From Haliotis rufescens (lineage: Eukaryota), in NCBI RefSeq assembly GCF_023055435.1, contig NW_025963780.1, forward strand, positions 21,452,001 through 21,516,000: a stretch of 64,000 nucleotides of DNA, written 5' to 3'. Both the position numbers and the translations under genes were made by a program. Shown here piece after piece: positions 17,973-63,387 of this stretch. How positions within the stretch are numbered: the stretch's first letter is position 1; each line of letters begins with the position of its first letter. A model generated the notes under the pieces. The model ran no database searches. It was not told the DNA's origin and was given only the letters and a program-made list of their open reading frames with translations.

Positions 17973-18007
<35 letters not shown>

Positions 18008-21744: not shown

Positions 21745-22199
21745 GAGACCACGTGTAGTGACGTCATGGGAGAAATGACGTATGTTGCCATGGGGAGTAT
21801 TTTTGCGGGTCTTGTGAGAGGAGAATGTTTGTAAACAAATGGTGGAAAATGATAAATGGGAATAGTTACTAGTATTGGTTATGCGGAGCTGACCATAAAC
21901 CGATTTAGCTAAATAATGCTAAATCATATTAGTTTCAAGGCACCCAATATTATACTTGTTGTTGCCCGTGTACTCTTCTTGTTTAGGCACTCATCACTCA
22001 ACTAACCCTTTAGTTGGTACAGTACCTCTACTAAGTTTTAAGTTAACTCCCCTGCAGCATTTGTTCTGCTTTGTAGACGGCTTTTAGTGGTGTTTGGATT
22101 AGTGTACTGGTACTTAGTTTTGTAGTTGGGCAGTTAGGTCTATAAGCCAAGGAGGGATTTGCAGGTATCAAAGAGGAGGAGCAACCAGGGTCTGATATC

Positions 22200-23430: not shown

Positions 23431-23437
23431 ACAACAA

Positions 23438-27959: not shown

Positions 27960-27986
27960 TAGATGACGGGGACTTCATTTATTGAT

Positions 27987-27996
27987 AGGGGGGTAG
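27987..27996 (+). promoter_or_regulatory. Polypurine tract
   Basis: aggggggtag lies immediately before the 3' LTR. Confidence 0.75.
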
Positions 27997-27998
27997 TG

Positions 27999-28648
27999 CG
28001 TAGCCGTGACATTTTGAGGGTATTTTAATGTCATAATTCGGTTCCTTTGTATATATCTATTTTACAATGGTTGGATGTAACATGGTGTTTTATATTTTAT
28101 GGTTTAAAGGTAAAATAAGAATAAAAATAATGTATAAGTCATAAAATGGTTGTAACAAATATTGATGGTTGGTGGCAGTATTCTAATGTTTGTGGTTTTA
28201 AGTGAATGTCAATTAGATTGACATTTGGTTTTGTTTATCTCTTAGTTCCTATGAATTTCATTTATCTGAATGGTTATGACATCAGAGTTATGTAAAGTAT
28301 AATGCTGGATCAAGAGTATTGCCTCATTCTGGATCCAGGATGAAAGTTGTTTATCACCTGACCCTAATTCTTAACTTCTCATTGGCTAATGTAAAAAACT
28401 AAGATAGTCTTCTTTGCACCAATCTAACCAACTCACAATCACAGCACCGCACAGGCAACAGCAAGGTGGCAGTAGGATTTAACAGGTCAGTTAAATACTT
28501 AAACACTAAATTATGTTTAGATTTATTATGTCTTTTACATGTTCATTAAGTATGTTGTTTCTTAGAAATTAATGTCATTTTGTATCTTGTTAAAAATGAT
28601 AAGGTTAAAAAAGGTATTTAATTATAAGTATCTAAAGTACCCGATGTT
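27999..28648 (+). repeat. Gypsy 3' LTR, 5' two-thirds only
   Basis: Matches 15076-15720 with scattered substitutions; stops at ATGTT. Confidence 0.92.
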
Positions 28649-32899: not shown

Positions 32900-32967
32900 A
32901 TGGATGCAAAATTATATGTAGTTTTGCTATTATCTGTTTCTGTTCCTTATTCTTTGCAATGGACCGG
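32900..32967 (+). CDS. RTK-like exon 1: signal peptide
   Basis: [22 protein letters not shown], then GG|gtaagt (phase 2, matching the next exon). Confidence 0.7.
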
Positions 32968-41900: not shown

Positions 41901-44900
41901 GTCAAAAATGGAACAAATCTTCAACTACGCTAAATGTGTTAAATGTCTAAAGTGTTTGTAATAGGAAAATATGTAGTAAATTAAATGTTAGTGTTAATAT
42001 TCCTTTGTTTGCATGTTGTATGGACAGTGTTACTCTCAATTTAAGATGTTGTTTTATGTTCTGCCCTACCTAGGTGGACCCGTGGTAACATCTGCCTCCT
42101 CCGACCACACGTGTGATAATACCGTCAGTTCCCAGGACCCTAAAGATATAATTACATGCTCCGTCAAAACACAGTACACCAAACGTTTAAATGATGGTGA
42201 CAAGTAAGTTAAAGTATGATAACACATCTGATTGTTTGAGTACTGTATTATACACGCTATTGTGTGTGATTACAAATCAAAAGAATATTATTTTCAGATA
42301 TGGTCGAAAGTTTTTGACTATCATTTGATGAATACATTTTGAATAAACATACTTTTAAAATTATCCAAACAAAGTGTTCCAAAACGACTGATATAGCATG
42401 TCAGGTATCTGTTTTGAAAATTGATATTTTCAAAGTGACATTGGTACAGTTCTGTATTCACACATCATGAGAACCATGTATATACACTTTATGGCTCAAC
42501 TGTGGACTTGATCTTATTGTTATCAATAGAAGAACATAACTTTCAATGATTTAGACCATTCTGGGTTTAGGCATTACCAGGGTTAGAAGGATCCCACATG
42601 TGTTCAAAGATGTTTTTCTCCAAAATATCGTAATAATTATGGTATTTTTAAAATTTCAAATTTACTTTCTACCGAGTGATTTTGTGATGTTTCAGTGCAG
42701 TGGTTTATCTACTCAAATCTCTATCACGTACTTATTGCAGATCTCCCCAAACCCTCACTCACTCATACAGTAAAAACCCACGAATCCAGAAACACAACTG
42801 TCCAGGCGATTACTGTTAGAAATGTCTACATGCAGTCAGTAAAAATGTTTAATTAATTACGAAATATGAACATCCCTCACAGGGCAACTTAACTCAGAAT
42901 GCTACCTCCCTGATTACTAGAGTTCCACAGCACCTACATGTCCTACTGCACAATCTGAACACATAACGTTACTATCTAGGTTGACGATGACATTCCGGGT
43001 GTCAAGTGGTGGCTACCGGGAATTGTACGACACCGGAAGTAGACGCGTGACAGCTCATGAGAATTACACAGGGCAAGAGACAGTCACTTCTGTGGCCTTT
43101 AACATTGACTTGGTGGAGCCTATTTACAACGACCCCGACCCTGCGTTTCGTATTACTCCCGAATTTACAAAGGTAACATAATTAATAGTAGATATCTGAT
43201 CTGTAATTCTAAATAACACTGACTACTTAGTTATGTCATTTTGGAAACACAGAAGGAATGTTTTCTTGGATGTCAATGTCTACTTTGTTCTCATTAGTAC
43301 CAAAAGCAACATAGTGAAACTGTTTGGTCGTTGAAATGATATGCTATATATTTACAGCTCAAACGACGCCAGCTGGCACATAAGACAGTTCTACCAGGTT
43401 TTAGACTATCTTCCTTTGTGGACTAAAAACTGTTTAGTGATTGTCGTTTCTAGCATATTTCCTGCTGTCGAGAATCTTATATTATGTCAGTAAAGAAAAC
43501 AACTTCGAATTTCCATCATAGGTTAAATTAGAATGGACGTAAAGTTTGGCTTTCATTTTTCCTTCTTTAAAACAAACAATTGAAACATATTTTCATTACG
43601 ATTACTGACACGACTGAGTTGTATACGAGTCATACGAGAAAAGGGAAAAACAAGATTACAACATCCATCATCTTGATCATCGTCTTCTATCATGTGAAGC
43701 AAATGCCCCTAGAATCTGATGGAAACGACTCACGTGTTATTCTTTGTTATCACAGGTTGACATCACTTTGAGTTGGCGAGGCTGGACTGATGCTAACTCT
43801 GGAATGAACAAATACAAATGGGAAGTCTTCAAACTCCAACCTAGTACTGGAGGAGCGCTGTCGGAGCTGACAGGACCTGTAAACCATGGAGAAGTGAAAC
43901 ACACCTCTCCTATCTCCTTCCCTGTGCCCTTTCTTCCAGAAAAACCAGGGATGTATTCCTTCATCCTTGAAGCTGTTGACAAGGCCAATAACTCTGTATA
44001 CATGAGACGGTTTGCCCTGTGTGACAAAGAGTCATCTGTTACTACTGACCCAAAGTACGCCGTGTTCATATCAACTGCTGTACAAGACCAGGGCTTCCAG
44101 TGGATGACTGATGCCTCCAAGCCACTTGTCATCATCTGGCAAAACCATTTTCGCAACTATGTTCACGAAAATGGTAAATATCTCAACAAAATCCTGCCCC
44201 TCAAAAAACAGATCGTGAAAGACCCGCCAATATACAAGCAAGTGATCCAAAGGAATGATGATAAGTATGGTAGAAGAACCACAGCGGCCATCCCCAATTT
44301 GAGAGGTGTCGTGAGGTTTGAGTGGACCCATGCTGTCAACAAGACAGGAGGTAGAACACAACAGACGCCTCCCAACTGGGATGATATATCCGGATTGAAC
44401 ACTACTTTACACTTACCTCAAGGTAAAATGTCAAGCCTCTGTGGTATAATAACAAATATGTTATGTAGCATCGCAACATCGAGTAAATATCTTGACATCA
44501 CTTGATCCATTGCCAGAACATAATTCCACATGTTAACATAAATCTACTGACAAATATTTTGAAATTAAATTTATTGTCATATTTGGCATCCTGTAAATTC
44601 AAAAGAAACCTTTATGAAAATAAAATAAATCATACCGATTTAATAGCTCCGAAGACATCAAAACTTACTCGAGGAATAATATGCTTACTGTTTTCAGAGA
44701 AGAATTGGTTTTTCTGAAAACTAGTGAATAGAATTGTCACAGTATAATATTCGTTGTTAATGTTCGACTGACACCATCAGCTTCAGAACATTCAAGCTCC
44801 AAAACTAAATGAGTATAAAGAATATCTCAAGTTTTATCGTTGGGTTTCAGAAAACGTTACCAGCGGGAGCACTGTTACGATTTGGGTGAGAGCCAGGGAC

Positions 44901-47900
44901 ATTCTGGACAACAAGAAAGTGGACTCGACAAGTGTCACCTATGACTTCACGGAGCCACAGTTCAGTAAGATGACATTCCTTCGAAACGAGATATCAAACA
45001 TCCCCTTCAGTTCAGGGTAAGCATAATGATGAGACAATGTTTACAAGCACTTTTTATTTACCCTTAGACTTATTGCACTAATGCAGCTACCAAACATGTC
45101 CCATTAACTGCAAATGCGTATCTGTTAAGGGAACACTTGCCATAATTGTACCATACTTGTTAGTGAGTGAGTGAGTATGGTCTTACGCCGCTTTTAACAA
45201 TATTCCACCAATATGTAATTGCGGAGGACACCATGAATGGACTTCACACATTGTATCCATGAGGGGAATCGAAACCGGACCTTCGGCATGACAAGCGTAA
45301 GCTTTAACTACCAGGCTACACTACCGCCTCACCATGCTTGAGAATATTTCATAAACAACAATTGTTCATGCTTGTAAATATGACATATTTACAACAATTA
45401 TTCATGCTTGTAAATATTTAGTAGCAGCAATTTTTTTATTATTTTAGACTTGTCATATTTAGAACAGTTATTCATGCTTATAAGGACCATATTTGCAAAC
45501 ATTTTTACAATTTTGTGAGTAAAGGTATGCATTTCAAAATATTTCATGTTTTACGTGCAAATCGGATTCGTTGAATGTTTGACTCATATGGAAAAAAAGG
45601 TTTAATACCGTCCGTGCTGTTGCAAATGAACGTGGCGTTTGTTCGATAGATAAACGGTTTCGTCATTCTGAGAGTTATTGTGGTAGATTTATGTTATGTT
45701 ATGTATTATATGTTTCAGATTAGAATTGACGGTACAGGACCTTGAGAGCGGCATTGAACACGCCGAGGTCAAGGTCACGCAGATGGATGATGGTCACGTA
45801 ATGACGAACAGGACCCTGACCCTGCCCCTGCCATCAGTTTCTGTACGTACTTATATTTTCTATCAACATTGGAAATATGCATACACCCTACAGTCAGTAC
45901 AGCCGTGATATAATCACTGGATATTGCTAAACATCTAATTGCTTAAAGTGGCAACGTTCACTCAGGACCAGGTTCTTATACATTCCGTGATATTTCGTTG
46001 ACTGTACCATTGCTAGTAAAATCGGAAAAAAGAATTTGAAAAGATATCCTGGATTAATGAACAAGTTAATCGGCTGGAAGTTGGGGGTCTGGAATAGTGT
46101 ACATGTGGACCGGACTCGGTTTCATAGTACATCATAGCAAAAGTAGGCATCAATATCTTAAAGTGGATGTTTTTGGCATTTTGGTAGCCTGGTGGTAAAA
46201 GTGTTCTATTCTTAACATGTGTGAAATGTCTGAAACCCATTTTGTATGTGATATTGAGTCGTGCTGGAAGCGTCGTGAAACCTTTCTCAATCACCGTAAA
46301 GACATTACTATAGGAACTTTAGTATCAATGAAGACATGCAGTACATGATAGACTATGGATTCAAGCTTAGTTACAATCCCCGTTACAGTAGTAGTATATG
46401 TACCGAACCATCTTTGTGGAAGTAGCAAATCAACCATGTCTCAACCATGTGTACATTTTGCAGAATGGACACATCTTGTGTAAAGACTTTAGGTTATGTG
46501 ATGCGGGAAATGTACATAAACTTAATCGGCTAAATTATCTCCTTTTACGTCCTTGATAATATCAGTGTGTAAAACTGTCCTTCTGTTATTCTTATATTAT
46601 CATCACTCTTTTTCCACTGAACCGGATTTGTTCAACTGTTTATAATGAATCTCTGTGGTATTCATGAACAAATTTGATGTTTCAGATGTATGCATGTTTA
46701 AACAAACCATCTAGCTGCTACTGTCCAAAAGCCCTGAACGTGTGTTACAAACGAGTGTACAAACTGTACATCAGCAACTGCTGGCTGATGGTGGCCAAGG
46801 AGGATCTTGAGTCAGCTCACGTTAAGCTGGAGGTGGACGTAGTCAACAGGGCGGGGCTGAAGACATCCATCCCCAGAGTGCACGTGGTGAGTAACTGTTA
46901 AAAGCATATGTGAAATTTCGAGTAGCGATAGATGTAATTAATCAACTCCATGTAAATGTCGACTCTTCTAAATCATGCGGCGCTTTGACATCTCAGAGAT
47001 ATCATATCATGTATAGCACCTTTACAGCATTGTCCATTCATGTCAAGGGTCCAAGTAAAACGAGTTCATTGCATGTAGTGTTTATATTATTTGCATACTT
47101 ATGTGTGACAAGTGTAGGCCAGTCCTATTATATCAGAGGTAGGTTTAGTTTACCAATTTTCACTTTGTGGCATACACCGTTTCGTGTTTGAAACCATGCG
47201 ATACCTTGGCATCTTGGCACATTGATATGTCATCCTCAAGATAAGTGGCTTGAAAAAATTGCTTTGCCAGAAGTGAAGGTTTTGAAAGGGAAGTGCATGG
47301 AACTTTCTTATTAATGTGGCTAGAGACGTGGGACTGCATAGAGCAAATATGATTGAACCATGCGTGTCAAGTGAATATCAATGTAGCCAGAGACATGGGA
47401 CTTTCTGATTCAAAGATATCTTGCATAAGCAGGTGTTTTATCAAACCGGAAGTGGTGTTGTTAAAACCGGAAGTAAAAATATTATTAAGGGAGCTGGAGG
47501 CTTTTCGTGTCATAGTTGTGCAGCATTGGGTATGTGTCCTACCAAAACAGAAGTGATGCAACCATGCACGTGTGTGTGTGTGTGAGCGCGCGCGTGTGTG
47601 TGGTTGCTTGTACTAGTCGATGTTTTAGTGTTATGCCACTGAGATACCATGCTGCAGTTTAACAGGAATACCCCACTCAGACACAGTTTATTGACTCCGT
47701 GCCGACCAGTCCTTGTTTTAGCCCCTTAATGCCGAGCGCCAGACAGGGCAACAACAAGTACCATCTTTTAACGTCTTTTGGTATGACGCGTCCGGGTATC
47801 AAAAACCGGACCTTCCGCTCTCCGGACGGACTCTCTACCACTAGACCACCACGGAGGCGGTCAGAAACTATAGTGAGTGTGGAGTATGGTTTTACGCCGC

Positions 47901-50900
47901 TTTACGAGACATAAATTCCCCATGCTAGCAAATCAACAAAAAGTGTCAGTTTTCGATATGAGGTAAGTAGGGTCAAACGGATGGGGTTGCACTGAGACCT
48001 CGGGGTGAAACCTAGACATGATCGCCTCGTAACATTAATTGCACTATGCAATATATTCATATCTGCTCCTGGTATCAATAGAGAAATACAATAACAGGAA
48101 GGCGAATTTCAACATCTACCGTTAAAAAGCCTGTAAGCAAGCCGTCCCGTGAAGGGTATGATCCTAACAGTTTACCACCCGCGGCAAAGATTTGGGTGGA
48201 CTAGGCAACACCAGGGACGGGCTTTGTGGCCTTTCACCATGTTTCACGGTTTTACCTCCGATTCATAAATGACAGTAAACCTTTTGGCGACGTAGGTAGC
48301 GGCGAGCGGTGTGTAAGGTTGACAATTCTTGACCATGATCGCTATGGGGGCGGTGTCATGGTGTGTGGTGGTATCACACATGATAGACAAACTTATTCAG
48401 TTATTGTGAAAGGGCATTTGACAGTCCAGCGGTATGTTGACAAAAATTTTCGTCCTTTCTTTGTTCCTTTCGTCGGAATTATCGGTGGACATTTTGAAGT
48501 GCAAGATGGCAATGCCAGACTACATAATGCCTAGGTCATCACCGATGATCCCAACTAGAAAACATACGGCCATTGCACTGGCATGGTACGACCCTTAACA
48601 TGACCCCAACAGAGCATGTGTGACAAGTTCTTGGGCGGAGAGGGGCGGTCGGGTAGCCTGGTGGTTAAAGCGTTAGCTCGTCACGCCGAAGACCCGGGTT
48701 CGATTCCTGACATGGGTACAATGTGTGAAGGCCATTTCTGGTGTCCCCCGCCGTGATATTGCTGGAATATTGCTAAAGCGGCGTAAAACCATACTCACTC
48801 ACTCACTCACTCACTCACTCACTCACTCACTCACTCTTGGGCGGAGAGTGTGCGCCAGGGACCCAGCACCCGCCACCACCCACCCAGCTTGGGGTAGCTC
48901 TTTTGTCGGAATGGCGGACAATACCAAGGGCAATCATGCGCATGTTATTAAACGGAATGCCAGCAAGGTGTCGTGCATGTATCACCCAACATTGAGGACA
49001 CAACAGATATTGATCTACAGGCCCCAATTTATCGATTGCTATTACACATTAACTATTATTTTATCAATTCCCTTAGTTTTTGTCTATGTCATTTAGTTGC
49101 AAATATATAATGATTTATAATGCAAGCTCATATTGGTTTAGTTTGCATTCTCAGCTCGTGTTGGAGTATCCACGAACATGGCGACGAAAGGTACTTTCAA
49201 GTCATATTTCTGTTCATAGGTGAAGGACCTTATGGTTATTAATGGGACATCAGCATGTAAGTTAATTAATGTAGTTGGGTTTTGATTTTAGTAAATCACA
49301 GGGAGTTTTTTATTTGACGAATGGTTGAAAATGAAGTTCTCGAAACCGTTCCAGTGACTGATAGCTAGGGTGTTTCATTTTACAATGTTTTCAAATCGAG
49401 TTTTTTAACTAATGTTTTCAAATCGAGTTTTTTTACTAATTAAGTAATGTCAGACCATTTACTCTGACACGATGACTCTCTGCGTGCAAAGCTGACCACA
49501 CCTCCACAGGAATATGAATCTTCTGATCAGCCAATTAGGTTTCTAAATTCGCGGTCCAATTGAGCAAACAAGCATGTCTGACTTCTGTAATTTGAAACCG
49601 AAGTTTAAACGCTCAAGTCCAAATGTAAATAATTCATGCCGCGCTTGTATATCGTTATGAATAGTCCATAACCCTGTCGTTTCTGAGCTCCATGTCACCT
49701 CCACCCAGTTGCGAGGAATATTTGGTTTTGATGTTGGTTTTCCTTCTGTAAAACTCGAAATTCCGATTCAAGATGGTAAATAAGTCTGAGCAGAATTGTT
49801 TTAGAAAGCTGACGTCCGATTATCTCAACAACCTGGCCATCTTTCATCTTTTGTAAAAACATTTTACAGTCACTTCACATAATTCTTTACCAGTCGCGAT
49901 GACGTCTCCCTTCGTGTTGGTGCAAGACCATGCCACATAACCCAGCAGTGTCACTCAGAACAACTGCGCTTTTGTATACATGAGAACAACACAATTTGTT
50001 CAACATTTGTTCATTGTTTATCAGATTTTGGACCAGTGAACGTGAATGTTGAAAAGTTGACTGACACGACGGCCAATGTGTCGTGGACACACGCCCCCAG
50101 CTGCCATGACCGCACATTTATATCGGTCACATATCAGCTCGATTCAGGCAAGCCAGAGACGATCAAACTGTACAAAGGTAAGAACTCCTAGAGGATCCGG
50201 ATCAAAAACTAAACTGTGTGTGGGTGTGTGGGGGGTGTGTGTGTGTGTGGTAGGGGGGGGGGGGGGGGGGGGGGGGGTGGTCACGGGTGGCCCAGTCGTC
50301 TAAGCCGCCGCGATTCGCTGTGCAGAGTTGCGTCCCTTGGGCACGCCAGAAACCTATGGTTGTGGGTTCGAATCCCGGTTCAACCCAATTATGTTTCTAG
50401 CTTTCTACCCGTGCTCGTGGGTTTCACCGAAGTGGTAAACGTCGGAGACCTGCATCACTTCGGGCTTTCCTCCCACATTAAGCTGAAACGCCGTGATATA
50501 ACTGGAATACTGTTAAAAGCGGCGTTACACCCAATTTACTCACTCACTCACTCACTAAACTGTGGAAGGGATGTGTGAAGAAAGCTTATTTTAGAGGTTT
50601 CCATGAAGCGTGTTTTGACCAAAGCTGATCATATTCAAAGGAGACGTACATAAAACAGTGCAAAGATATCTTTGGTCACAGACTTAATATATTCACACAA
50701 AATCATTTGAAATTCTAACAATCCGCCTCTTTCACTCATTTTGTCTATCTTTGTATATTTGACCATGTCAGACGTTCAAAACTTGCACGCGTAAGAACGA
50801 AAGAAAGGTAGTCGCCAGTCATTTGAACGCGTCTTGTAACTGTCATATCAATGTGTCAATTTAAAGTATTCATGAGGGCCAACAATATCCGCATTCTACC

Positions 50901-53900
50901 TTCCCCTCCTTTCATCTTGCATTTCTATAAAGTCCCCTTGCGATGATATATGATTGGATTTCTTCAGAACCACCAATTATGTCATCAATAATAAATCGCA
51001 ATTTGATCAAAGGTTCATCTATGTTCTGACAATTTATGCTTGTAACTATGTCAGTAAATATTGCTTGAAGTCGCATTTAGAAGTATTGCAGCAAATTGCA
51101 GGTGACAATTACGTTGCCAGTTTTGAAACTACATGTATCAACATGACTTATCATGTAGGAATTTTACATGTGTAAATTGATGTTGCAATGTACAAACTAT
51201 ATATTGGCCTTCGTACAAATGAACTTTGACCTTGACTTTGAATTCTTCAAAGACGCTACATTCCAACTCCTCAAGGGCCTTGAACCTGGCAAAAAGTACA
51301 AGGTCATGGTCACAGCAGACTATGGGGACATCAAGAGTAAACCTAGAAATGCCTCTTTTACAATGGGTAAGTCAAATGTTGTGCATGTCAGTTATATTTG
51401 ACATAAAGTTATATATTGCTTTACAAATTACACACTTTTGGATATCATATTAATTATTCAAATAACTTCTTTACTAATTATCTTCACAGCTTTTTCAGGG
51501 GACACCTCAGGTTTAGGTGCTGGAGACATAGCGGGTATGGTTGTAGGTAGGTGTAATGTTTTTCATTCATTAGAAGTCTAAGTCCCTAGGAATATCGAAT
51601 ATCAGTTCATCCGTTTTGTCGATATTAATATTGTGACGAGTAGAATTATGCCAGGACTATAAAGTAAAAAAAAGAAGTCTAAATGATATGTCGAGTCAAA
51701 AGATTTCGAGTTTACGAGGTTAACCTGCATCCTGTTAGTTGTTTTAAGAAATTACATTTAGTACTAACTACTAAATGACTTTATCGCGCGTATCAAAACC
51801 ATTGGCTAATTACGTCCGTAACACAATCACCCCTCGTAACTCAATCACCCCCGGTCACCACTCTGCACCGTGCCAGGGGAATATTCCCGCGCGAGCATCA
51901 TCCCGCCTTTTGTTAGTCCATCATTCGCGGACATTCCTTCTTCAAGTACACACGCGTTCACTGTATCTAATCGCTTTCGCTTTGTACGTTTCCTTTGTAC
52001 CCAGTCGCGACCGTTTTGCCGATTACGCTTTGAATACCATCTATTCAAACACTCGCCAAATCGCATTTACACAATCGCGACCGTTTCGTCGATTACGCTT
52101 TGAATACCACCTATTTCAGCACTCGCCGTATCGCATTTATTCCGTTCTACTCCCGAACTTCATCCTCGGGACATTTTTACACTTGTGGAGTACCAACTAA
52201 CCACCTCGACCTTTCGTGATGCCTCCCAAGAGAAGAGCAGCCGTCAACCACAAGCTTGTGAGGGGAGCCAAGCAGGCCAGGACAACCAGAAGACAAACCT
52301 CGGGAGTACACATTATGCAGGAGGCAACAGCTGATGGTGAGTCTTCCAATTACGGAAATATCCAAGGTGGCAACAGAATTAACGTGCAATCGGCGCAGCT
52401 TGTAAATGCCGCGCAGGCTGCCAACTCGGCTACCCAGGTAAACGAGCAACTGGAAAAAATACTCCAGTTGCTGGAACATTCAGCGCCCAGCCCGGTTAGC
52501 GCAAACCAACAGGTAAGGCTTGGTTTTAGTTCTCACGCCATTTCGCCCAACATAGGGAGAATCCCCGATGCGCACAACGAGGCCGACGGTGACGCGGCTT
52601 GGCCAGCCAATCAGAACGCAGGATACGGGGATTCCCTATCCTTCCGTGCGGATGGAATAGACGCGCACGTCAAACAACAGGTGAGGGAAAAATTCTGGCG
52701 TGGCGAGTTTGTCGACCTCGGCACAATCCTACCAAACACCTAGGGAAGTCACAAGGACGGTACGATTACCATGGCGTACGACTCCTCAGGTAAGATAATT
52801 TTTAAACCAATAAAGCAGCAACCAAAGCGCCTGTACCTGGCAAGCTGGACTTCAGCTTTCCACATTTTCATGTATATCTATGTTAGTAGGCACTCCGAGG
52901 TCCGCACAACCCAGGGGTTGCTGTCCTACATGGAAACCATAAGAACGGCGGCTCTTCGATTCGGGTGGGAAGCCTGGTCAATCTACGACCAACAATTCCG
53001 ACACAGAATGTCAAGGGACCCCTCACGACGCTGGGACAACATTGACGGGGAGTTGTGGCTGAAGTACATGGTCACACAGCCGGTACGACAACCAGAATCA
53101 GGCGGACGGGGCGCAATGACACGCGTACAGGGGGACATCGCTAGTCAGGTATGCTGGGATTTCAATAAACTTGGTTGTAGCAGGGTCAACTGCAAGTACA
53201 CTCACAAATGCGGTAAGTGTGGCAAACATTCCCACAGCTCTAGGACCTGCTTTCGATGGGAATGGGGTCCAACCGACCCCATACAAGCCCAATCAGCCTT
53301 TCCCTAACAGAAAACCAGCCGTCAAGGCAGGTAATTTCAATGGCCCCTTCCCCCGTGGATCTCAATGAAATAGCACCCTGGTTACGCCAATATGCTAGGG
53401 TCAATTACAGAGATGCAAATTATTTATGGGTAGGTTTTAGCTTTGGCTTTAAGCTCGAGTTCCAGGGCAGCTGCATGGGTCGCCTGGCACGAAACTTGCG
53501 ATCAGCCACGCACCAAGACACGGCATGCTACGTGAAACAAAAACTACAAAAGGAAGTCGACCTTGGCGGGATGGTGGGCCCCTTCAAGGACACCCCCCTG
53601 GACAACCTCCAAGTATCCCCAATAGGCCTGGTGCCCAAGAAGCAGCCAGGCTATGGTCAGCATCTGGGTAAGCATGCGGAGGAATTCCGTCTAATTCACC
53701 ATCTATCCTATCCCAGGGGTAAATCTATAAATGACTTCATAGACACAGAGGCCTGCTCCGTTGTGTATGCCAGATTTGATGAAGCTACGCATATGGTTCA
53801 ACAACTGGGAAAGGAAGCACTACTAGCAAAATTCGACATTCAGTCGGCCTTTAGAATTATACCAGTCCACCCATCCGATTTCGAGCTACTAGGCATCAGA

Positions 53901-56900
53901 TTCGAAGGTGAGTTCTATTTCGATAAATGCTTACCATTTGGCTGCTCCATATCTTGCGTCATATTTGAAACGTTTAGTACCTTCTTGCAATGGTGCATGC
54001 AATTACATCTTCCAACGTGTCAGATCATGCATTACCTGGATGACTTCCTAACTGGGGGCACAGCAGGCACCAGCTACTGCTCAGACAACCTCAACGGATG
54101 CGTGAATACACTGGAACAGCTTGGGGTCCCTATTGGGCACGACAAGACGGTGGGCCCCACGACCAAACTGACATTCTTAGGGCTGGAAATCGACACCAAT
54201 GCAATGCAGATCAGAATCCCAGAGTCGAAGATCAAGGAGGCGACAAGGGAAATCCAAGACATCCTGTCAACAGGTAACATCAAGGTCACAAAAAGGGCCC
54301 TTCAGTCCCTCATAGGCAAGCTTAACTTTATGTGCAGGGCTATACCAATGGCAAGGGCATTCAGCCGAAGGCTAATCGATCTGCTTAGCAAAGGTAAGCA
54401 ACCATTTCACCATTAGGATTACCAGCTGGGTCAAGGAAGACCTACAAATGTGGTTAACATTTCTTACGAGTTATAACGGCATTTCAGTGTTTCAGGACCA
54501 ACTATGGGTAGACAGCGATTTCCTCCAGCTGTTTTCAGACGCAGCGGGTGGTGCCAGCTTTGGGGCCTACATGCAGGGCAAATGGTTTAACGGCGCATGG
54601 CCAACCCAGTGGGTGACGGATGGAACTACATGGGACTTGACGCTCCTGGAGCTGTTCCCCATCACACTGGCAATCCAACTTTGGGGCAAGCAACTCGCAA
54701 ACAAAAAGGTCCTCTTTTACTGCGACAACCAAGCCGTCTTAGCAATAATCAACAAACAGTCGACCAAGGCCCCCAGAGTGATGAGCCTACTCCGTCGCCT
54801 AATCCTGCAGTGCCTCCGATATAATATTATGTTTAAGGCAAAGTATGTATGTTCCACTGCTAACACTATTGCCGATGCTCTCTCGAGGTTTCAGCTCAAA
54901 TGCTTCCGAGAGGGAGCACCAGCCGCGGACCATAACCCCACACCTATCCTGTGCAACATATGGCGGATCTGAGGCAGGAAGCCGGCAGACTCCTTCAACA
55001 ATCTCTGTCTACAAATACATGGACCACTTACCAAACAGGCATCAATGCCTTGCACCAGTTCCGGTCCACACACCAGCTACAAGAGGTGTGGCCAGTCCGG
55101 CTGGATCAGGTCGTAAACTTTATTGCTTATCTGTCAGTCACTCACCACTCCCCTAACACAGTCAAGACTTACATTCACACCACAAATTCCACGGGCTCAC
55201 CGACTGTACAAACCATTTCCTGGCAGGCAAGATTTTAACAGGCCTACACAAATCAGCGGGCCGACCAGACACCAGAAAACCGATCACTGCAGAACTGCTG
55301 CAGGTAGTAACCAACAATCTGCCTCACGTATGCTCATCAGCATATGAAGCCAGACTGTTCAAGGCAGTCTACTGCACAGCCTTCTTCGGCTTCTTTAGGG
55401 TTAGCGAACTGGTCCAAACTGGACCCTCAAAAACAGGTTGCGCCATCCAGAATTTAAGCTTCTTGGGCAACCCCCAGCAGCTTTCAATCCATTTACCACA
55501 CTCAAAGTCTGATCAGTACAGGATGGGGATAACAGTTACAATGTCATCGATACCAGGTAATCCGCTATGTCCGGTAGTCACCATCAAGCACTCCTTCCGC
55601 ATTGGGGCAGCCACATCAGCAGCCATGAACGGGGTGCCCGAACACCTCATACAACAATACGGCAGGTGGAAATCAGATTGCTACAATGCTCACATACGCT
55701 TACCAACAAATTCAATGTTACACAATTAATTCAAATAGTCTTTCATGGTACTTACTACACTTCTTATTGTTTACAGTTTCGATGGTGGGATCCAGCTACA
55801 TGGCCAGGGCACGGCAGTACTTGCTCCTGAAGGGCACCAGTCCAAACCAACCGAGGATGCTATGGCTGGCACGAGGGGGGATGATGTGGAAGGAGCTGGA
55901 CACCATTCTGGATGCACAGGTCAAGGCGACACGGCGCACCCCTAGAGCCCTAATCATTCACCGGGGCTCCAACGACCTGTGCTCGGTCAAGGGCAGCCAA
56001 CTCTACCTTGACATGGTGGCATCAATCCTTAGGATACAACTCCAGCTTCCTGGCACCAGGATCATTGTATCCTCAATTCTGCCCAGGCGCTACTGGCACG
56101 ATGCCAGGGATCCACTAAAGATCGAGGGGATGCGGAAGAATATCAACCGCTGACTGGCCAACCGAGACAAAGAGCTCGGCGGTACAATGGTGCCACATCC
56201 CCAGATCCTGGCATCAGACAAGACATGGCACCACAGTGACAAAGGATTGTGTGTGTTTACGGACAATTTATTGCATGCCCTGGCGCTTGTTTTGTGCCAG
56301 TAAGGATGTTATCTCCACAGGTTAGTTAGTGTTTCTTTTCAGTACATAGGCAAGCGGGACAAAAATGCTATCTCCACGTATCGCGTGGCCGTGGGTGTGG
56401 GGTAGCACTCTGGTGCTTTGTGGCGGGGTTCTTGTGGGCTACACTGCTAGTGACGAATTAACTTGCTTCCAAATTAATACTCGTGCTTAAGGCTACCTGC
56501 TTTTCAGGGGGAACCTTGTCTTCCCCGACTTTTCCTGCCGGGGAATCGTAAAATAACATACGTTGGGGCAAACAATTGCCACGTATATGGGCCTGGCGGC
56601 GGAAGTCGTCTTGTCAAGCGCTAGCTGACAGTTGGGTCCGCGGCGGTAGTCGCACAATGGTTTTTCTAATGGGGCCAGGCAGTGGAATCGCCGTTGGCCA
56701 CGCTAGTGGCCATTGCAACGGTAGCATTTTGGTATACACAATTAGCAGCTTAGTAGCCCACTAGTACCTGCACACCCTCGGCCTTAAAACCCAATCTCAT
56801 CTTCTGTTTTTATTATAGGCACGGGCATCCACGGCTCGGTGGCCCGTGCCTCTCCTTGGCATATCGTGGGATAATTACATTAAGTACTAACTACTAAATG

Positions 56901-59900
56901 ACTTTATCGCGCGTATCCAAACCATTGGCTAATTACATCCGTAACCCAATCACCCCTCGTAACCCAATCACCCCTCGTAACTCAATCACCCCCGGTCACC
57001 ACTCTGCACCGTGCCAGGGGAATATTCCCGCGCGAGCATCATCCCGCCTTTTGTTAGTCCATCATTCCCTGACAGTCCTTCTTCAAGTACACACGCGTTC
57101 ACTGTATCTAATCGCTTTCCCACCCACCCACGCAGCTTCCCACTCCTTTTCTTTCCTTTTCAGCCTGATGTGTCCTCTTCACCTGGAATGCTAATCACTT
57201 CTTTTCTTCAGCGTTTATTCAATTACAGGTACCAGCAGAGCAGATTGTATATATGTAAATAACCTGTACATATGTAAAATAGGTTTTCAGGGCGCTTGTA
57301 TATATGTACATACCTTTTAAACGATTCTGATATATGTTAAAAAACATGACTTATAAATAGCTGTATATATGTATATATGCGAATACCTGTCTCAACAATA
57401 AACTATGTCGAGGTGTGCGGGGTTCTTGTGGGCTACACTGCTAGTAACGAATTAACTTGCTTCCAAATTAATACTCGTGCTTAAGGCTACCTGCTTTTCA
57501 GCTGGAACCTTTCCGGGGTTACCTGCTTCTCAGTGGGAACCTTGTCTTTCCCGACATTTCAGCCGGGGAATCGTAAAATAACATACGTTGGGGCAAACAA
57601 TTGCCACGTATATGGGCCCGGCGGCGGAAGTCGTCTTGTCAAGCGCTAGATGACAGTTGGGTCCGCGGCGGTAGTCGCACAATGGTTTTGCTAATGGGGC
57701 CAGGCAGTGGGATCTGCTTTGGTCTACTACCTGGGGCCGGGCAGCGGTAGTCTGACTTAGGCCAGCAGTGGGGAGCTGCTTTTGGCAGCGTGGGAGTTGC
57801 CAAGCAATGGTAGGGTTTGAATATGCTACCGTGGGGGCCGGACAGCGGTAGCAGTCTCAGGCCAGCAGCGCTAACTGCGAATCGCCGTTGGCCACGCTAG
57901 TGGCCATTGCAACGGTAGCATTTTGGTATACACAATTAGCAGCTTAGTAGCCCACTGGTACCTGCACCCTCGACCATTTAACCCAATCTCATCTTCTGTT
58001 TTTATTATAGGCACAGGCATCCACGGCTCGGTGGCCTGTGCCTCTCCTTGGCATATCGTGGGATAACTATGTATTATGTTATTTCTATAATATCACAATC
58101 ACGTGGGGATTCCGGATTAGAATGGGATGAGTGAGTAAGTGAGCATGGTTTTCGCCGGTTTTAGCAGTATTCCAGCAAGATATAGGCTTCACACATTGTA
58201 CTCTTGTGGGGAATAAAACCCAGGTCTTCAGCGTGACGAGCGAACGCTTTAACCACTAGGCTACCCAATCGCCCCGGATTAGAATTGGTCCTCTGCAGCC
58301 TGTTGTAAGAGGCGAATAAATAAATCCCTTTTACTGAAATTCCAAAGACACCTTCCTTCAAAGAAAGCCAGACGACTCTTGCAGAAATGTTTTTGGATCA
58401 GAATAAATACCAAGGCCTTAGTAAGCTTTCCCTTGTTGGTATGGTAGACATGTGGAGGACATTTCCAGCTATGACGCATCAATGAATGCACCGTGAATAT
58501 TGGAATATTGCTGACTTCGGCGTTCAACAAAACAATTATGATAGCACTATAAAACTATAATAGGATACTGTAATTATTGCTTTAAAATATCAACACCTCA
58601 AACATGTACGAACCTTGATCATTTTTCTTTTCTTACCATTGGTGATATTAATCCTAGCTGTCCTTGTCATTGGCCTGTTTATGTGGAGGACGGGCAAGAT
58701 GGTGGCGTTGATCAATCGACGTCAGAGCAGACACAAAGGACGTCAGAATCCCAACACTCAGAAAATCTACAATAACCTTCAGAGACCTCGGAAGGGCACA
58801 GTGTCCTATCATGTAGGTTTCTTCAGTCACAGGCATGGACGTTAGACAAACGAATGTTTCACAGGGAGAGTTTGTAAGGTTTAACGCTGTTTGGAAAGTA
58901 TCTCGTACTTACGTTATATCACGTCCAAGATTATTGCACTTATATAGCACGTGCATGCACGTGTGTGTGTGTACGTGTGTGGCTGCTTGTACTAGTCCGG
59001 ACTGATGCCAATTTATAGTGCTAGCACACTGAGATACCATGCTGCAGTTTAACATGAATACCCCACTCAGACACAGTATACTGACTCCGAGCCGACCAGT
59101 CCTTGTTTTAGCCCCTTAGTGCCGAGCGCCAGACAGGGTAACAACAAGTACCATCTTTTAACGTTTTTTGGTATGACGCGGCCGGCCGGGATCGAACCCC
59201 GGACCTTCCGCTCTACCACTAGACCACCACGGAGGCGGTCTCACGTGACTGCTAAATACTGGAAAAGGTGATGTACGTCCCAGACGTTTACCCAAAACAC
59301 GGACATGCTGCTGACAAAATTAGAATAAAAGACAGGCAAATCTGGGATTCGAACCTATGGCCAGCAGTAAAACGACTCATGACAGGATGTGGTTAATTCT
59401 AATAGGGAATGTGATTGTAACATTTACAAGTATATAAACCATGACATGAAAGAGCCAAACAGCGGCTGTTTGTCTGGCAGCCATAATCATAGATAATGTA
59501 TCATTATACTCCGACGTGGGACGTTGTTTATTATGTCAATCGCTGGTTTGTCTGGTCCAGACCCAAACAAAGGCTAAACTCGCTTTGTAAAAGAAGGCTG
59601 TGGTCTTAAAACATGGATCCTCGATAGCGAGATGTAACATTCAAATAAGCAATATACTAGCTGAATACAAAAACGGGAACGAACTGCACGTATGTCACCT
59701 ATATTCCATTCATTATGTGTACTATTATGTGTACTATTTATTATGTGTACTGTTATGTGTACTATTTATTATGTGTACTTTAACATTGATGTGTACTATA
59801 TGGTGTACTATTATGTTTACTATTCATTATGTGTACTATTATGTGTACTATTTTTATGTGTACTATCATGTGTATTATTTATTATGTGTACTTTAAATTT

Positions 59901-62900
59901 ATGTGTACTATTATGTGTACTGTTATGTTACTATTTAGGAAGTGTACTTTATGTGTACTATTATGTGTACTATTATGTGTACTATTTAGGAAGTGTGCTA
60001 TTTATTATGTGTACTATTACGTGTACTATTTATTGTGTGTACTATTATGTTTACTATTATGTGTGATATTATTTAACATCGGCAAGTGAAATTTGTTTCT
60101 TACTCAATTTGTGACTACATGTTTATTTTCTCTTCAGAACAAAACATATGAAGTTGACGACGACATCTATGTGTACGGCAGCATGTCGTTCACGGCGGAG
60201 CAGCCTTGGTATATCCCCAAGGACAATCTGACGTTGATGGAGGAGATTCACACTGGCAGATTTGCACGGATTTACAAGGCGTCTCACAAGACTGGCAAAA
60301 CATCGAGCGAGATGGCAGCCAAAGTGTTGAAAAGTGAGACATGCAAACACTGTCTGGATGGTTGTTCAGATAAAGGATTTTGGTGGTTGTGCAGTTGGAC
60401 TGTTGTTGTTCTTCTTATTTGTTTCTTGTTCTTTTGTTTGTTGTTGTTTTTTAGAGGTTTCTATGGGGCCGTCGTGAACAACAAGAAACTGGAGGTTTCA
60501 TCTCGGTAGCCCTGGGTGTTTGCGTTTGAGTTTCGCCTTTTAGTCGTGCCAGGATCCACTGACCATGGGTCTAAACTGTTCTAAATCTAATTCTTGCTTT
60601 TTAACTCCATTCGCCTGCCTTTCACCAAAACTGTAGATATTTGAGACCTGAGCGAAACGTAAATCATTTGCTTTTTGATCATCACTATAGTGCAACGCCA
60701 ATGCTCAAGGGCTGTTCATTTTCGATTTTTTGTGATTGTAAGAAAAGGGACACGGAACAAAACAGAAGAGAAGATACAATTGTACACCCACGAAGCCTCG
60801 TTAAGTTACACTGATAACATCGATTGTGCAGCCAGTGAGCATGTCGGAGGCTGCTGTCGTGAAGGTCACTATCACCATAGCCTTAGAACCCGTACCACGA
60901 CATAGCAGGACCATTTGAGACATGAAATAGGCTTGTGACAGGCTCCTAGCGATGAATCATTAGACACACATTTTTATCACAGAAACACCAGATGAAGAAA
61001 ACAGTTTACTGATGATGGCCAAAATCAACTTTGCTGCAACACAGGTCGGGGAACATCGCAACGTTCTGGGATTTCGGGGCGCTATTCTCAACAACGATGC
61101 TCGTAAGTGAAAACGTAAACGACTAACACCTCTCCATAAGTACCAACGGTAACATGGAATATATACTGGTAAAACCAACTGAGGGATCAACAGCATATTA
61201 CAACCTGATCGCCCTGATTGTTTCTAGGCGATAGTACACTTTTGGGTGTAGATGGCAAAAAAAGAAATGGGCGGAACAGGCCCATTAACTTCGTTTTCAA
61301 GATAGAAAAATTGGAAATGATGGCCTGATCATGCTTCCTTTATTTATAATCGTCGAAATTGGTTGGCGTGAAAGTTAACGTGACGTGACATCCTTTCTGC
61401 GACCAATGCAGAGAAGTGTGTATCGGAGTGAAATATTTGATTGTAATTAGATTGTAGCTTTATTCTCTTCCAGTGGGACCTGTGCTGGTGTTAGAGTACT
61501 GCGAGAACGGACAAATGGACAAATGGCTGAGAGACCACAGAGACAATGTCAACGTGGACACCTTGGAGAGGATTCAGAGCTTTGGATTGGGTATTGCCAG
61601 AGGAATGGAATACCTGGCCATTAAAGGGATATGTCACGGCGCGTGCTGATCTCCTGAATAAGCTTGCTAAATGTGCAATTTGTATCATGATCGTAGGTTT
61701 CCATTTTGAACGTCCAAGGCCTGAATCCCTTCCACAAGCTGAGCCTTGATATAATCGAGAAGTTGAAATCGTGTTGAAATCTGCATTAAAGCCCCATTGT
61801 GATATGTCTGGTCTCTCCTAGCGCCATCAACCCTCCGAATGATTGAGTCTGGCCAATGTTAACAAGGGTAGCTGACTATAAATTGTCAACCCGAAAGCGA
61901 AACGATAAGATGGCGCGTACCTTCCTCACCATTCGCAGCTGCCCTTAACCTACAAGAAGACCCCTACCGATCAATGTAATCTGCGAAAACCAAGCCGAAT
62001 ACCTTAATCATAGGTATTTATATGTACAAACGCAAGAAAAGTGTGCATCTTAAGTGACAGTCACAATTGTTTCACGATACTGAATAACACGTGGATGTAA
62101 AACGTTTTAAATAAATACATGTAAAGATACGTGTACGTGTAGTACAACAGGTTGACCTCTACTTTTTGAAATGCCTGTTTGCGTGGAGACCGGCTCAAAA
62201 TGAAAAATATTTGCCACGTGAGGGTCCACGTAAGAGGGTCCGTTTTATGTTCATGATCACGAATCATGGCGAGTGTCGTTTATTAAGAGTTGCTGAGCTA
62301 TTTAAACAATTCATGTATAACAATATAATCTTAATTGTATTTTTTTCGGGGTGGGGGTGGGGGTGGGGGGTGGGGGGGGGGGGGGGGGGGGTGGGTCTTT
62401 TGCTTTTACACACTGAAAGAAATATTACAGAGCTTTATCACGACATCCTTGAAATAATATTGGCCAAACAAAGCAGTGGTTGATTGCAAAAACATCACCC
62501 CTCGCCGTCTGGCTTAGATACAAGCAGCCAAGTCAGAGAGCTTGACCACCCGATCCTCGTCTCTGCTATTCTGGCCTGAAATCTCCACAGATTAACAAGC
62601 TAGTTGTGTCACAATCATATGTATTTCAATAAGAATGCGAAATATTGATGCCATACGTCTATAACAGGATACAACTTTAACTGTCTAAATTAAAACATTT
62701 TTAGGATCGAATCCCTGTGAAGTGGACGGCTCCATAGTGTCTTCAGTCTCTGAAGGTAGCCAACGAGAAGAGTGACATCTGGTCCTTTGGCATCACTATG
62801 TGGGAGATCTTCAGCATGGGTAGGTTTCTAAATCTGAAAATGCCCTTCTCGTCTTTTCAAAAGTTTTGTTTCTTGTAATGATTTGTTTGTTGACACCGCA

Positions 62901-63387
62901 ATATTTCGGCTGTATGAGGGCGGCCTGAAAAAAATTATATGCCAGTGATTTATTTTATGAGCAACGACCCCAATTCATTATGTCGCCTCTTGCTAGGGAT
63001 CTATATATTCTATTTTGAAAAGTGACTTAAGGATTTCAGTGGAATGGACAAACTGTTGCATTTGTACATATATACATGTTGAGTTTACTGAACGAACGTC
63101 AGTAACGTTCTTCATTTCCCGGTTTTGGTATTCAGTCAAAAGCTGATTACGAATACATCACCAGGTCCTGATACTGTGTGACGTACATGTATATGTACTC
63201 AGTAATCAGTATGTGGGTACCATATTATATTCTCTATGTACATTTTGCATTGTGCTCGAATGACTAAGACACGCCCATCTACATACTGCACAGGCAAGGC
63301 GCCCTACTCAGACATCCGTAGCAGAGATCTCGCTGTCAAAATCAGGAATGGTTTCCGGCTCCAGAGACCGGAATACGCCGAGGATAT
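32900..63387 (+). CDS. Multi-exon receptor tyrosine kinase-like gene (signal peptide, EMI-like, EGF, EGF, beta-sandwich region, FN3, TM, degenerate tyrosine kinase); 3' part disrupted; may continue beyond the window
   Basis: 22 exons with consistent phases: 32900-32967, 34191-34259, 35041-35138, 35756-35851, 40947-41054, 41329-41583, 42074-42203, 42980-43172, 43756-44422, 44851-45016, 45719-45842, 46686-46886, 49220-49256, 50025-50177, 51253-51366, 51490-51546, 58637/58658-58812, 60138-60333, 60983-61102, 61474-61628, 62705-62819, 63294-63387. The first 16 exons total 2536 nt and are open. Confidence 0.85.
33105..33460. repeat. 24-bp minisatellite (intronic)
   Basis: Unit tcaatcctctattcaatctttatg. 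Confidence 0.9.
34191..34259 (+). CDS. RTK-like exon 2: EMI-like N-half
   Basis: tttcag|[25 protein letters not shown]|gtaagt. Confidence 0.75.
35041..35138 (+). CDS. RTK-like exon 3: EMI-like C-half
   Basis: ttacag| [32 protein letters not shown] |gtgagg; the CCPGW motif. Confidence 0.8.
35756..35851 (+). CDS. RTK-like exon 4: EGF-like domain
   Basis: Phase 1-1 exon [28 protein letters not shown]. Confidence 0.88.
36401..36973 (+). repeat. Copy 1 of an about 570-bp local direct duplication (includes a family B SINE)
   Basis: Colinear with 38537-39145. Confidence 0.85.
37135..38265. repeat. Compound ~20-21-bp minisatellite (intronic)
   Basis: Alternating units such as cacaattaccagtaccaggtg and cacaattacccgtaacggtg. 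Confidence 0.92.
38537..39145 (+). repeat. Copy 2 of the local direct duplication
   Basis: Colinear with 36401-36973. Confidence 0.85.
39290..39860. repeat. Degenerate (CATAT)n-like low-complexity tract
   Basis: Recurrent catat/atcac pentamers; G-poor. Confidence 0.7.
40947..41054 (+). CDS. RTK-like exon 5: EGF-like domain
   Basis: Phase 1-1 exon [35 protein letters not shown]. Confidence 0.88.
41329..41583 (+). CDS. RTK-like exon 6
   Basis: atgtag| open frame |gtgagc; phase 1-1. Confidence 0.8.
42074..42203 (+). CDS. RTK-like exon 7
   Basis: cctag| ... |gtaagt; phase 1-2. Confidence 0.8.
42980..43172 (+). CDS. RTK-like exon 8
   Basis: tctag| ... |gtaaca; phase 2-0. Confidence 0.8.
43756..44422 (+). 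CDS. RTK-like exon 9 (beta-sandwich-like)
   Basis: 667-nt open exon containing [15 protein letters not shown] and [13 protein letters not shown]; phase 0-1. Confidence 0.88.
44851..45016 (+). CDS. RTK-like exon 10
   Basis: tttcag| ..[14 protein letters not shown].. |gtaagc; phase 1-2. Confidence 0.82.
45163..45330 (-). mobile_element. tRNA(Asp)-derived SINE
   Basis: Family similarity; (GAGT)n tail. Confidence 0.8.
45719..45842 (+). CDS. RTK-like exon 11
   Basis: tttcag| [12 protein letters not shown].. |gtacgt; phase 2-0. Confidence 0.8.
46686..46886 (+). CDS. RTK-like exon 12
   Basis: tttcag| MYAC..CYCP..C..VVNRAGL.. |gtgagt; phase 0-0. Confidence 0.82.
47565..47862 (-). mobile_element. 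tRNA-derived SINE, family B, full length with (CA)n tail
   Basis: Matches 58950-59240. Confidence 0.85.
47950..49140 (+). mobile_element. Degraded Tc1/mariner transposon
   Basis: [10 protein letters not shown]...GHLTVQRY...VQDGNARLH and a later PTEHV (NPIEH-like) motif; ends are approximate. Confidence 0.75.
48643..48834 (+). mobile_element. Full-length tRNA(Asp)-derived SINE nested in the Tc1 remnant, 14-bp TSD
   Basis: TSD tcttgggcggagag at 48629-48642 and 48835-48848; (ACTC)n tail. Confidence 0.92.
49220..49256 (+). CDS. RTK-like exon 13 (37-nt mini-exon)
   Basis: catag|[13 protein letters not shown]|gtaagt; supplies the required phase 0-to-1 bridge. Confidence 0.7.
50025..50177 (+). 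CDS. RTK-like exon 14: FN3 N-half
   Basis: [19 protein letters not shown]; phase 1-1. Confidence 0.85.
50275..50556 (+). mobile_element. tRNA-derived SINE sharing the (ACTC)n 3' tail of the Asp-SINE
   Basis: gtggcccagtcgtctaag...gggttcgaatccc head; tail cgccgtgatata.ctggaata.tg.taaaagcggcgt. Confidence 0.7.
51253..51366 (+). CDS. RTK-like exon 15: FN3 C-half
   Basis: [16 protein letters not shown]; phase 1-1. Confidence 0.88.
51490..51546 (+). CDS. RTK-like exon 16: juxtamembrane and start of TM
   Basis: cacag| [19 protein letters not shown]|gtaggt; phase 1-1. Confidence 0.8.
52219..53307 (+). pseudogene. Ngaro copy 2 gag-like ORF1 (in-frame TAG at 52741)
   Basis: MPPKRR N-terminus; [24 protein letters not shown]; C-terminal Cys/His cluster. 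Confidence 0.88.
53256..54972 (+). pseudogene. Ngaro copy 2 RT-RNase H (frameshift near 54415)
   Basis: [19 protein letters not shown]; FSDAAG, CDNQAV, ADALSR. Confidence 0.92.
54960..55729 (+). pseudogene. Ngaro copy 2 tyrosine recombinase (frameshifts, internal deletion, catalytic Tyr to His)
   Basis: [29 protein letters not shown]; AHIR where copy 1 has KYIR. Confidence 0.88.
55777..56300 (+). pseudogene. Ngaro copy 2 SGNH hydrolase (stop at 56151)
   Basis: tttacag| SMVGSS, RGG, HRGSND; homologous to 17334-17866. Confidence 0.8.
58128..58275 (-). mobile_element. tRNA(Asp)-derived SINE, internally deleted
   Basis: Family similarity. Confidence 0.75.
58637..58812 (+). CDS. RTK-like exon 17: TM and juxtamembrane (acceptor uncertain: 58637 lacks AG, 58658 has AG)
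   Basis: [16 protein letters not shown] followed by the basic RTGK..RRQSRHK; donor gtaggt, phase 0. Confidence 0.75.
58950..59240 (-). mobile_element. tRNA-derived SINE, family B
   Basis: Matches 47565-47862. Confidence 0.85.
59700..60062. repeat. ~13-bp AT-rich minisatellite
   Basis: Unit ttatgtgtacta(t). Confidence 0.9.
60138..60333 (+). CDS. RTK-like exon 18: kinase subdomains I-II
   Basis: [25 protein letters not shown]...MAAKVLK. Confidence 0.88.
60983..61102 (+). CDS. RTK-like exon 19: kinase subdomains III-IV
   Basis: LMMAKINF...[12 protein letters not shown]; phase 1-1. Confidence 0.85.
61474..61628 (+). CDS. RTK-like exon 20: kinase subdomains V-VIa (donor reads ATATGT)
   Basis: [18 protein letters not shown]...[13 protein letters not shown]. 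Confidence 0.88.
62705..62819 (+). pseudogene. RTK-like kinase exon, subdomains VIII-IX, with a nonsense codon in the APE motif
   Basis: [11 protein letters not shown]...[18 protein letters not shown]; TAG at 62735-62737. Confidence 0.9.
63294..63387 (+). CDS. RTK-like kinase exon, subdomain X
   Basis: GKAPYSDI...[14 protein letters not shown] |gtgagt. Confidence 0.88.

Follow-up and report, generated by a model that had tools for sequence, protein, structure and literature searches.

A Ngaro retrotransposon between the open ectodomain and damaged kinase exons of a predicted receptor pseudokinase gene in Haliotis rufescens: probably a rare, decaying allele

Two soluble receptor forms made with transposon sequence and one group of Ngaro elements are among the closest described systems to the locus reported here. 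For CD274-L2A, a soluble PD-L1, a transcript, hominid conservation and antagonist activity are reported, together with a full-length isoform that persists (PMC6877088), and for IFNAR2-S, a decoy with an Alu exon, high expression, primate-wide occurrence and tested function are reported (10.1101/2023.09.11.557241). The Xenopus Ngaro elements DIRS-53_XT and DIRS-54_XT carry an SGNH open reading frame (ORF) in the order A1 - gag, reverse transcriptase/RNase H (RT/RH), tyrosine recombinase (YR), SGNH - B1 A2 B2, and the strings 'splic' and 'intron' occur nowhere in the main text of their description (10.1101/2021.08.05.455354). Here we analyse a 64,000-nucleotide stretch of Haliotis rufescens DNA (GCF_023055435.1, contig NW_025963780.1, positions 21,452,001 to 21,516,000; hereafter the window), in which a Ngaro retrotransposon lies in sense orientation in intron 16 of a receptor-kinase gene, W, between an open ectodomain and damaged transmembrane (TM) and kinase exons. 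A first, sequence-only reading of the window had proposed the element as a gene trap that may have turned the receptor into a secreted decoy or an ectodomain-hydrolase chimera. We conclude instead that W is probably a rare allele in decay, belonging to a redundant member of a tandem cluster, and that the element would probably truncate its transcripts without yielding a selected product.

W shares with CD274-L2A an intronic retroelement before the TM exon and a TM-less form, predicted in W, and with IFNAR2-S a transposon exon in place of the receptor's signalling part, in W a prediction from sequence only. It is unlike CD274-L2A in that the allele occurs in none of four other animals, the 3' exons are dead and the W form is known at the level of sequence alone. 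The element in W has the split-repeat layout and ORF order of DIRS-53_XT and DIRS-54_XT, and differs from them in its mollusc host, its decayed state and the position of its SGNH frame behind a conserved phase-1 acceptor. W resembles the layout of transposon-made decoys but lacks their common or conserved insertion. A literature search found no link between the Ngaro class and transposon-made soluble receptors, and no dedicated paper on Ngaro gene traps or on the Haliotis pseudokinase family to which W belongs.

W was rebuilt from the window as an EGF/FN3 receptor-kinase gene, whose exons 1-16 (32900-51546, +) hold 845 open codons and are separated by introns that all follow GT..AG, and the same exon set recurs in its paralogues A (P0013, XP_048244071.1, labelled 'angiopoietin-1 receptor-like') and C. 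The 16 upstream exons of the sequence-only reading, with 845 codons, no stop and canonical splice sites, are thereby upheld. A further candidate exon at 42741-42834 was dropped because its frame is broken, and the paralogue proteins confirm that it is not used. Exon 11 of W carries a 6-nt insertion that is diagnostic of this copy.

32900-32967, 34191-34259, 35041-35138, 35756-35851, 40947-41054, 41329-41583, 42074-42203, 42980-43172 (+): W exons 1-8
43756-44422, 44851-45016, 45719-45842, 46686-46886, 49220-49256, 50025-50177, 51253-51366, 51490-51546 (+): W exons 9-16
Order of the W ectodomain: predicted signal peptide, EGF-like repeats, long unnamed region, FN3 (from Pfam EGF_2 and fn3 on full-length relatives)
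51547-51548 (+): phase-1 GT donor of exon 16
58638-58639 (+): lesion 1, TM-exon acceptor AT, which is AG in A, C and D
58640-61628 (+): W exons 17-20, coding-intact, for the TM, juxtamembrane and pseudokinase N-lobe
61629-61630 (+): lesion 2, donor AT, which is GT in A, C and D; read-through stops after ICHGAC
~62324-62400 (+): lesion 3, deletion of ~350-380 bp, catalytic-loop exon lost
62735-62737 (+): lesion 4, TAG in the APE motif of the exon at 62705-62819, which is GAG in A, C and D
63294-63387 (+): next W kinase exon, intact; the last exon lies outside the window

All four lesions are specific to W in comparison with the insertion-free copies A, C and D, none is shared with B, C or D, and all fall within 4.7 kb 3' of the element, in agreement with the earlier placement of every lesion downstream of the insertion. 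The catalytic-loop exon was found at 20 places in the genome, none of them at W. Damage is the rule among the close copies: four out of five (W, B, C and D) are affected, three of these without the Ngaro element, and only A is intact, being fully open with no error across 3.5 kb of coding sequence and all splice sites. Copy B is a fragment with frameshifts; in copy C the donor that follows the TM exon is dead and the ectodomain intact; copy D is missing exons and is further disabled by a frameshift and a stop. The rare-allele reading is supported because these sister copies decayed without Ngaro. In a coarse screen, none of 11 more distant cluster genes carried this element family in the fetched stretch; one had lost half of an FN3 exon in the ectodomain, one had an in-frame deletion, and no clear 3' decay was seen. 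This screen used tblastn only, with splice sites outside its reach, first exons often missed, stops at exon edges discounted and two gaps inspected. Tandem families evolve by birth and death, with young duplicates, several of them pseudogenised, and patchwork ancestry; W is like them and is unusual in nothing except the placement of all its lesions 3'. Copy D lies apart, on contig C556 at ~16.13-16.15 Mb, where exon 15 is duplicated and exons 1-4 and 14 are not in the fetched region, and is a dispersed pseudogene.

The insertion itself is well delimited. The site is empty in paralogues A, C and D, the junctions are clean against this empty site, and a 2-bp core is shared without target-site duplication. 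Split repeats in the order A1 ... B1 A2 B2 and gag-like, RT/RH and YR ORFs in sequence identify the element as Ngaro.

51752-58066 (+): Ngaro tyrosine-recombinase retrotransposon, 6.3 kb, in intron 16, sense to W
51752-51978 (+): split repeat A1; partner A2 at ~56871-57119, 7 mismatches/226
52219-53307 (+): gag-like ORF with a weak CCCH-finger match and an internal stop at 52741
53244-54972 (+): RT/RNase H, frameshifted
54936-55729 (+): tyrosine recombinase, frameshifted and lacking ~140 bp internally
55750-55776 (+): element-borne polypyrimidine-AG acceptor, phase 1; AG retained in 29/29 other copies
55777-56304 (+): SGNH-like exon; its stop at 56151-56153 is common to 2/29 copies
56423-56870 (+): split repeat B1; partner B2 at 57417-58066, 15 mismatches/445, 4 gaps
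57397-57402 (+): AATAAA directly before B2

Stops, frameshifts and deletions have accumulated in gag, RT/RH, YR and SGNH, the last with an 18-nt deletion at 56229 relative to 15/15 copies. Pfam recognises RVT_1 (7e-15) and Phage_int_SAM (1e-4) in the element, RT_RNaseH and CCCH weakly, and finds no match for the catalytic half of YR. Methyltransferase does not appear in the Pfam scan listing of the window ORFs, a scan that was not aimed at it. The SGNH ORF of W has no Pfam match, and the similar ORF of a second element in the window matches Lipase_GDSL_2 below the curated cut-off. Compared with 15 copies, the element shows 89 private substitutions over 5,731 columns (1.55%), and a further 9 indels are private to it. 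Divergence within its repeat pairs is ~3%, whereas the B pair of four other copies diverges by ~1% or less (4-7/~646). On this measure of divergence the insertion is to be considered old. Since the hexamer before B2 recurs in 4/4 copies in which both B repeats were located (15 copies fetched) and the acceptor AG is so widely retained, acceptor 55777 and AATAAA 57397 are likely the element's own processing signals. The element also holds earlier AATAAA hexamers at 52809 and 53164, several other acceptor-like sites, and a phase-1 donor-like GT at 52337 inside its first ORF. The second, different Ngaro-like element, on the minus strand at ~16900-22000, comprises RT/RH and SGNH; it has an AG right before its open SGNH frame, at a position matching the acceptor in W, and keeps a GVHL block.

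A sense host transcript entering the element could, by inference from these signals, use its acceptor and poly(A) signal. The host donor at 51547 and the element acceptor at 55777 are both phase 1, and their join reads GMVV-V-SMVGSS up to the stop at 56151; this in-frame fusion and the AATAAA at 57397-57402 were found as the sequence-only reading had given them. The spliced ectodomain-SGNH product is predicted at 970 aa, 125 residues of which are element-derived, whereas read-through of the exon 16 donor would meet a stop at 51579 and give a predicted ~856 aa. Both forms would be without a TM, with maximal hydropathy of 1.30 and 0.92 in the predicted tails against 3.49 for the TM of A. Truncation of W transcripts by the element is plausible because its phase-1 acceptor and AATAAA are conserved in the element family. 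The proposed gene trap therefore holds in part: the sense orientation, conserved phase-1 acceptor and poly(A) signal stand, while the hydrolase part is truncated before its predicted His block.

Expected lesion counts, computed by applying the element's private substitution and indel rates, put the asymmetry between ectodomain and 3' exons in proportion. Neutral decay over the age of the element predicts 2.44 lesions in the 3' exons, where four are seen. The probability that all four fall 3' is 0.008 for decay of the entire gene as one unit, and 0.17-0.28 if only exons 12-16 or 13-16 stay linked to the insertion, in which case the probability of no ectodomain lesion is 0.26-0.40. Under the decaying-allele reading W would have been null or dispensable first, and sequence linked to the insertion would then have decayed, while crossover and gene conversion with working alleles would refresh the distal ectodomain exons. 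The linked targets would be of unequal size, 361-562 nt of ectodomain coding sequence within ~5 kb upstream compared with ~1,100 nt of TM/kinase coding sequence downstream.

Alleles in other animals bear on this mechanism. Four DNA runs from four studies, one animal each, were compared as contigs (run X1 was 88% read), and the absence of the insertion and lesions was judged at nine listed element positions and at 61629. At the nine element positions none of the four runs has depth for the letter of W, and 61629 is G in 4/4; W's insertion is, on those nine positions, absent from all four animals. Genotyping of this kind had been proposed with the sequence-only reading; the insertion is missing from every animal, which speaks against a maintained decoy, and lesion 2 is missing from the same four. 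Single-copy-depth contigs in X10 and X14 are identical to W at 41013-41351, 42236-42528 and 45249-45629. These 1,013 bp span 27 sites at which W differs from every aligned sister copy, and 15.7 differences would be expected across them had they aged with the element; none is seen. On the 3' side, X2, X10 and X14 show no difference from W across up to 603 bp within 59824-60632, between lesions 1 and 2, where 9.4 differences would be expected at element age. The W haplotype is a patchwork and not frozen, because animals without this element copy carry tracts identical to it. Furthermore, 8 of 27 W-specific ectodomain residues are common to another Haliotis species and are therefore old allele states rather than changes that followed the insertion. 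The intron tract at 60303-60632, ~12% divergent from A, C and D and identical in three other animals, is an old, common allele segment.

Several observations weigh against decay without selection. For a dead haplotype frozen since the insertion, 5.65 ectodomain lesions are expected and none is seen (P = 0.0035); the asymmetry is beyond chance under that condition, which is the strongest result in favour of the sequence-only reading, and a decaying allele therefore needs recombination. The tracts identical to W are mostly intronic and amount to ~1 kb of 6.1 kb compared, and between 41 and 46 kb, exon 9 included, W has many letters that are missing from the compared animals. The 3' side recombines too, yet its lesions stayed. 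The sample comprises only four animals, possibly from other populations. All 30 ectodomain cysteines are retained in W, and the ratio of nonsynonymous to synonymous changes (N/S) on its ectodomain branch is the lowest of the three copies compared, at 27/14 (ratio 0.55) against 33/10 (0.94) in A and 36/14 (0.74) in C, albeit with P = 0.41 vs A+C and P = 0.09 vs neutral sites.

The comparison of ectodomain and kinase exons with the paralogues, proposed alongside the sequence-only reading, gave no significant difference: the three dN/dS tests returned P = 0.09, 0.41 and 0.69, and the W-branch values are confounded by old allele segments. The 3' N/S counts are 9/3 in W, 4/2 in A and 6/4 in C, and changes at otherwise invariant ectodomain sites number 9 in W, 10 in A and 9 in C. 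By these counts the W ectodomain looks like that of an ordinary allele, as would be predicted both for a decaying copy and for a maintained decoy. Selective maintenance of the ectodomain as a secreted decoy or chimera finds no backing here, as dN/dS separates W neither from neutrality nor from its sister copies and recombination can explain its intactness.

A selected secreted decoy, in which the element traps splicing or polyadenylation and a TM-less ectodomain (856 aa, or 970 aa with an inert SGNH stub) is kept while the 3' exons decay, nevertheless accounts for the position of the four lesions if the gene decays as one unit. The conserved acceptor and AATAAA, the predicted tails without TM, the alignment of the upstream 1.5 kb of W with paralogue A and the precedent of CD274-L2A (PMC6877088) also fit. 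We consider this unlikely, in view of an insertion that is old yet found in none of the four animals, dN/dS that is not distinct and 5' tracts held in common with insertion-free animals. P0014 (XP_071102796.1), the H. cracherodii relative, compared as protein, is full-length; the NCBI annotated models of 7 cluster members include neither an ectodomain-only nor a fusion protein and all lack W exons 9-16, and an ectodomain-only layout occurs in 0/11 of the more distant cluster genes. It is similarly doubtful that a polymorphic Ngaro insertion is here turning one allele of a pseudokinase receptor into a soluble decoy, its ectodomain maintained by selection ever since the insertion, with SGNH-bearing Ngaro elements acting as natural phase-1 gene traps. 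W exons 1-8 appear only in NCBI isoforms that run on into copy C. These isoforms, P0015, P0016 and P0017, join the first 2-8 exons of W to copy C ~200 kb away and are likely annotation chimeras from mosaic alleles.

No better placed than the decoy is a chance mosaic, in which the intron tolerates the element as a passenger, and unequal crossover or conversion has joined to it the 3' lesions of another, pseudogenised haplotype. The 603-bp tract shared with other animals' alleles indicates that the 3' side is not one decaying block, C and D have 3' lesions despite lacking the element, and the sister copies are patchworks. W's lesions are nonetheless not in B, C or D, lesion 2 is in 0/4 animals, and the four lesions fit the number expected from the age of the element, so that a mosaic of this kind appears improbable.

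More doubtful still is a membrane-tethered truncated receptor. The next AG after the lost TM-exon acceptor, at 58656-58657, is in frame and 18 nt downstream, and could, judged from hydropathy, restore a membrane anchor, although the TM would be shorter (maximum 2.22 vs 3.49 in A). With the element spliced out and this AG used, a protein of ~1,060 aa with a short TM and the pseudokinase N-lobe would end at the stop in intron 20. Exons 17-20 are coding-intact, no lesion other than the first lies before 61629, and the four exons form an NCBI model of their own, P0018 (207 aa), that ends at this same stop. The element's acceptor and poly(A) site would, however, compete with such splicing, the allele is in 0/4 animals, and the 3' N/S of 9/3 in W gives no sign of constraint. 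A stop with introns downstream normally triggers nonsense-mediated decay, which also counts against a tethered product.

An assembly artefact, with lesions and junctions arising as consensus errors or from a misjoin of near-identical copies, is highly improbable. The region is a multi-copy cluster, and the best word share with the window among 24 listed runs is 0.42; yet the neighbouring copy A is error-free, the junctions are clean, the four lesions are of four kinds with no homopolymer slip among them, the repeat pairs show real ageing, and 1.6 kb match other animals exactly. Least credible is a functional chimera of secreted receptor domain and active SGNH esterase: for all its in-frame phase-1 join, it is very unlikely because the predicted SGNH part stops after 125 element residues, ~35 residues before the GVHL-type His block (position inferred from the second element), where 18 nt are missing in W, and private change in the SGNH region, at 1.7%, is no lower than in the rest of the element.

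The 3' exons lost by W are predicted to have encoded a scaffold-type domain rather than an active enzyme. Intact relatives in four Haliotis species carry HRK for HRD and GFG for DFG: HRK is present in 25/25 proteins in which the motif was found (29 fetched) and GFG in 24, the others being fragments or pattern mismatches. Loss of the catalytic Asp of HRD and of the Asp of DFG predicts a catalytically dead kinase, and the host family would accordingly consist of predicted pseudokinases. In the relatives, Pfam detects EGF, a single FN3 and a tyrosine-kinase-like domain, and no Ig domain. Tie/angiopoietin receptors combine Ig domains, EGF repeats and three FN3; this architecture is absent here, and 'angiopoietin-1 receptor-like', the name given to P0013 and P0014, is an automatic label. 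The database proteins closest to W are labelled Haliotis, and exon 9 of W, 96% identical to P0001, has 36 matches in its own genome, among them four copies that are 94-97% identical and eleven that are 67-72% identical.

At least 15 predicted receptor pseudokinases are clustered on contig C2 at ~20.73-21.73 Mb, with further copies near 39.4-39.6 and 45.6-46.0 Mb on C2. The proteins of the cluster carry a C-terminal tyrosine-rich tail, with YYY in most, and the family is common to four Haliotis species. In ectodomain exons 6-8 (41329-43172), divergent types are shuffled among copies and shared across species (compared with A, C, P0014, P0002 and P0003); exon 7 of A and exon 8 of C resemble H. 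cracherodii, a pattern as in receptors under balancing selection. An oppositely oriented gene pair is repeated four times with a period of ~185 kb (C2 20844k/20886k, 21029k/21068k, 21215k/21255k and 21397k/21439k), reflecting either recent segmental duplication or uncollapsed assembly. P0006, an H. rubra relative of 841 aa, ends before the TM; it may be a fragmentary annotation or a form that lacks the TM. Within the window, the first coding exon of a neighbouring family gene lies at ~4000 (-), head-to-head with W across ~29 kb of repeats. These other features complete the window:

13079-15133 (-): tandem repeat spanned by long open frames, in which low-complexity sequence matches Cohesin_HEAT; probably satellite
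~22300-28000 (+): decayed Ty3/gypsy-like element with PNMA-type gag, protease, RNase H and integrase matches

On present evidence W is an ordinary damaged duplicate. Were it a decoy after all, it would be an invertebrate case of a transposon-made soluble receptor that is still segregating and testable in populations. Two other results are of more lasting value. With the conserved acceptor and poly(A) signal that they carry, SGNH-bearing Ngaro elements could cut short whichever host gene they enter in sense, and the cluster around W comprises at least 15 predicted pseudokinases with patchwork ectodomain alleles across Haliotis species.

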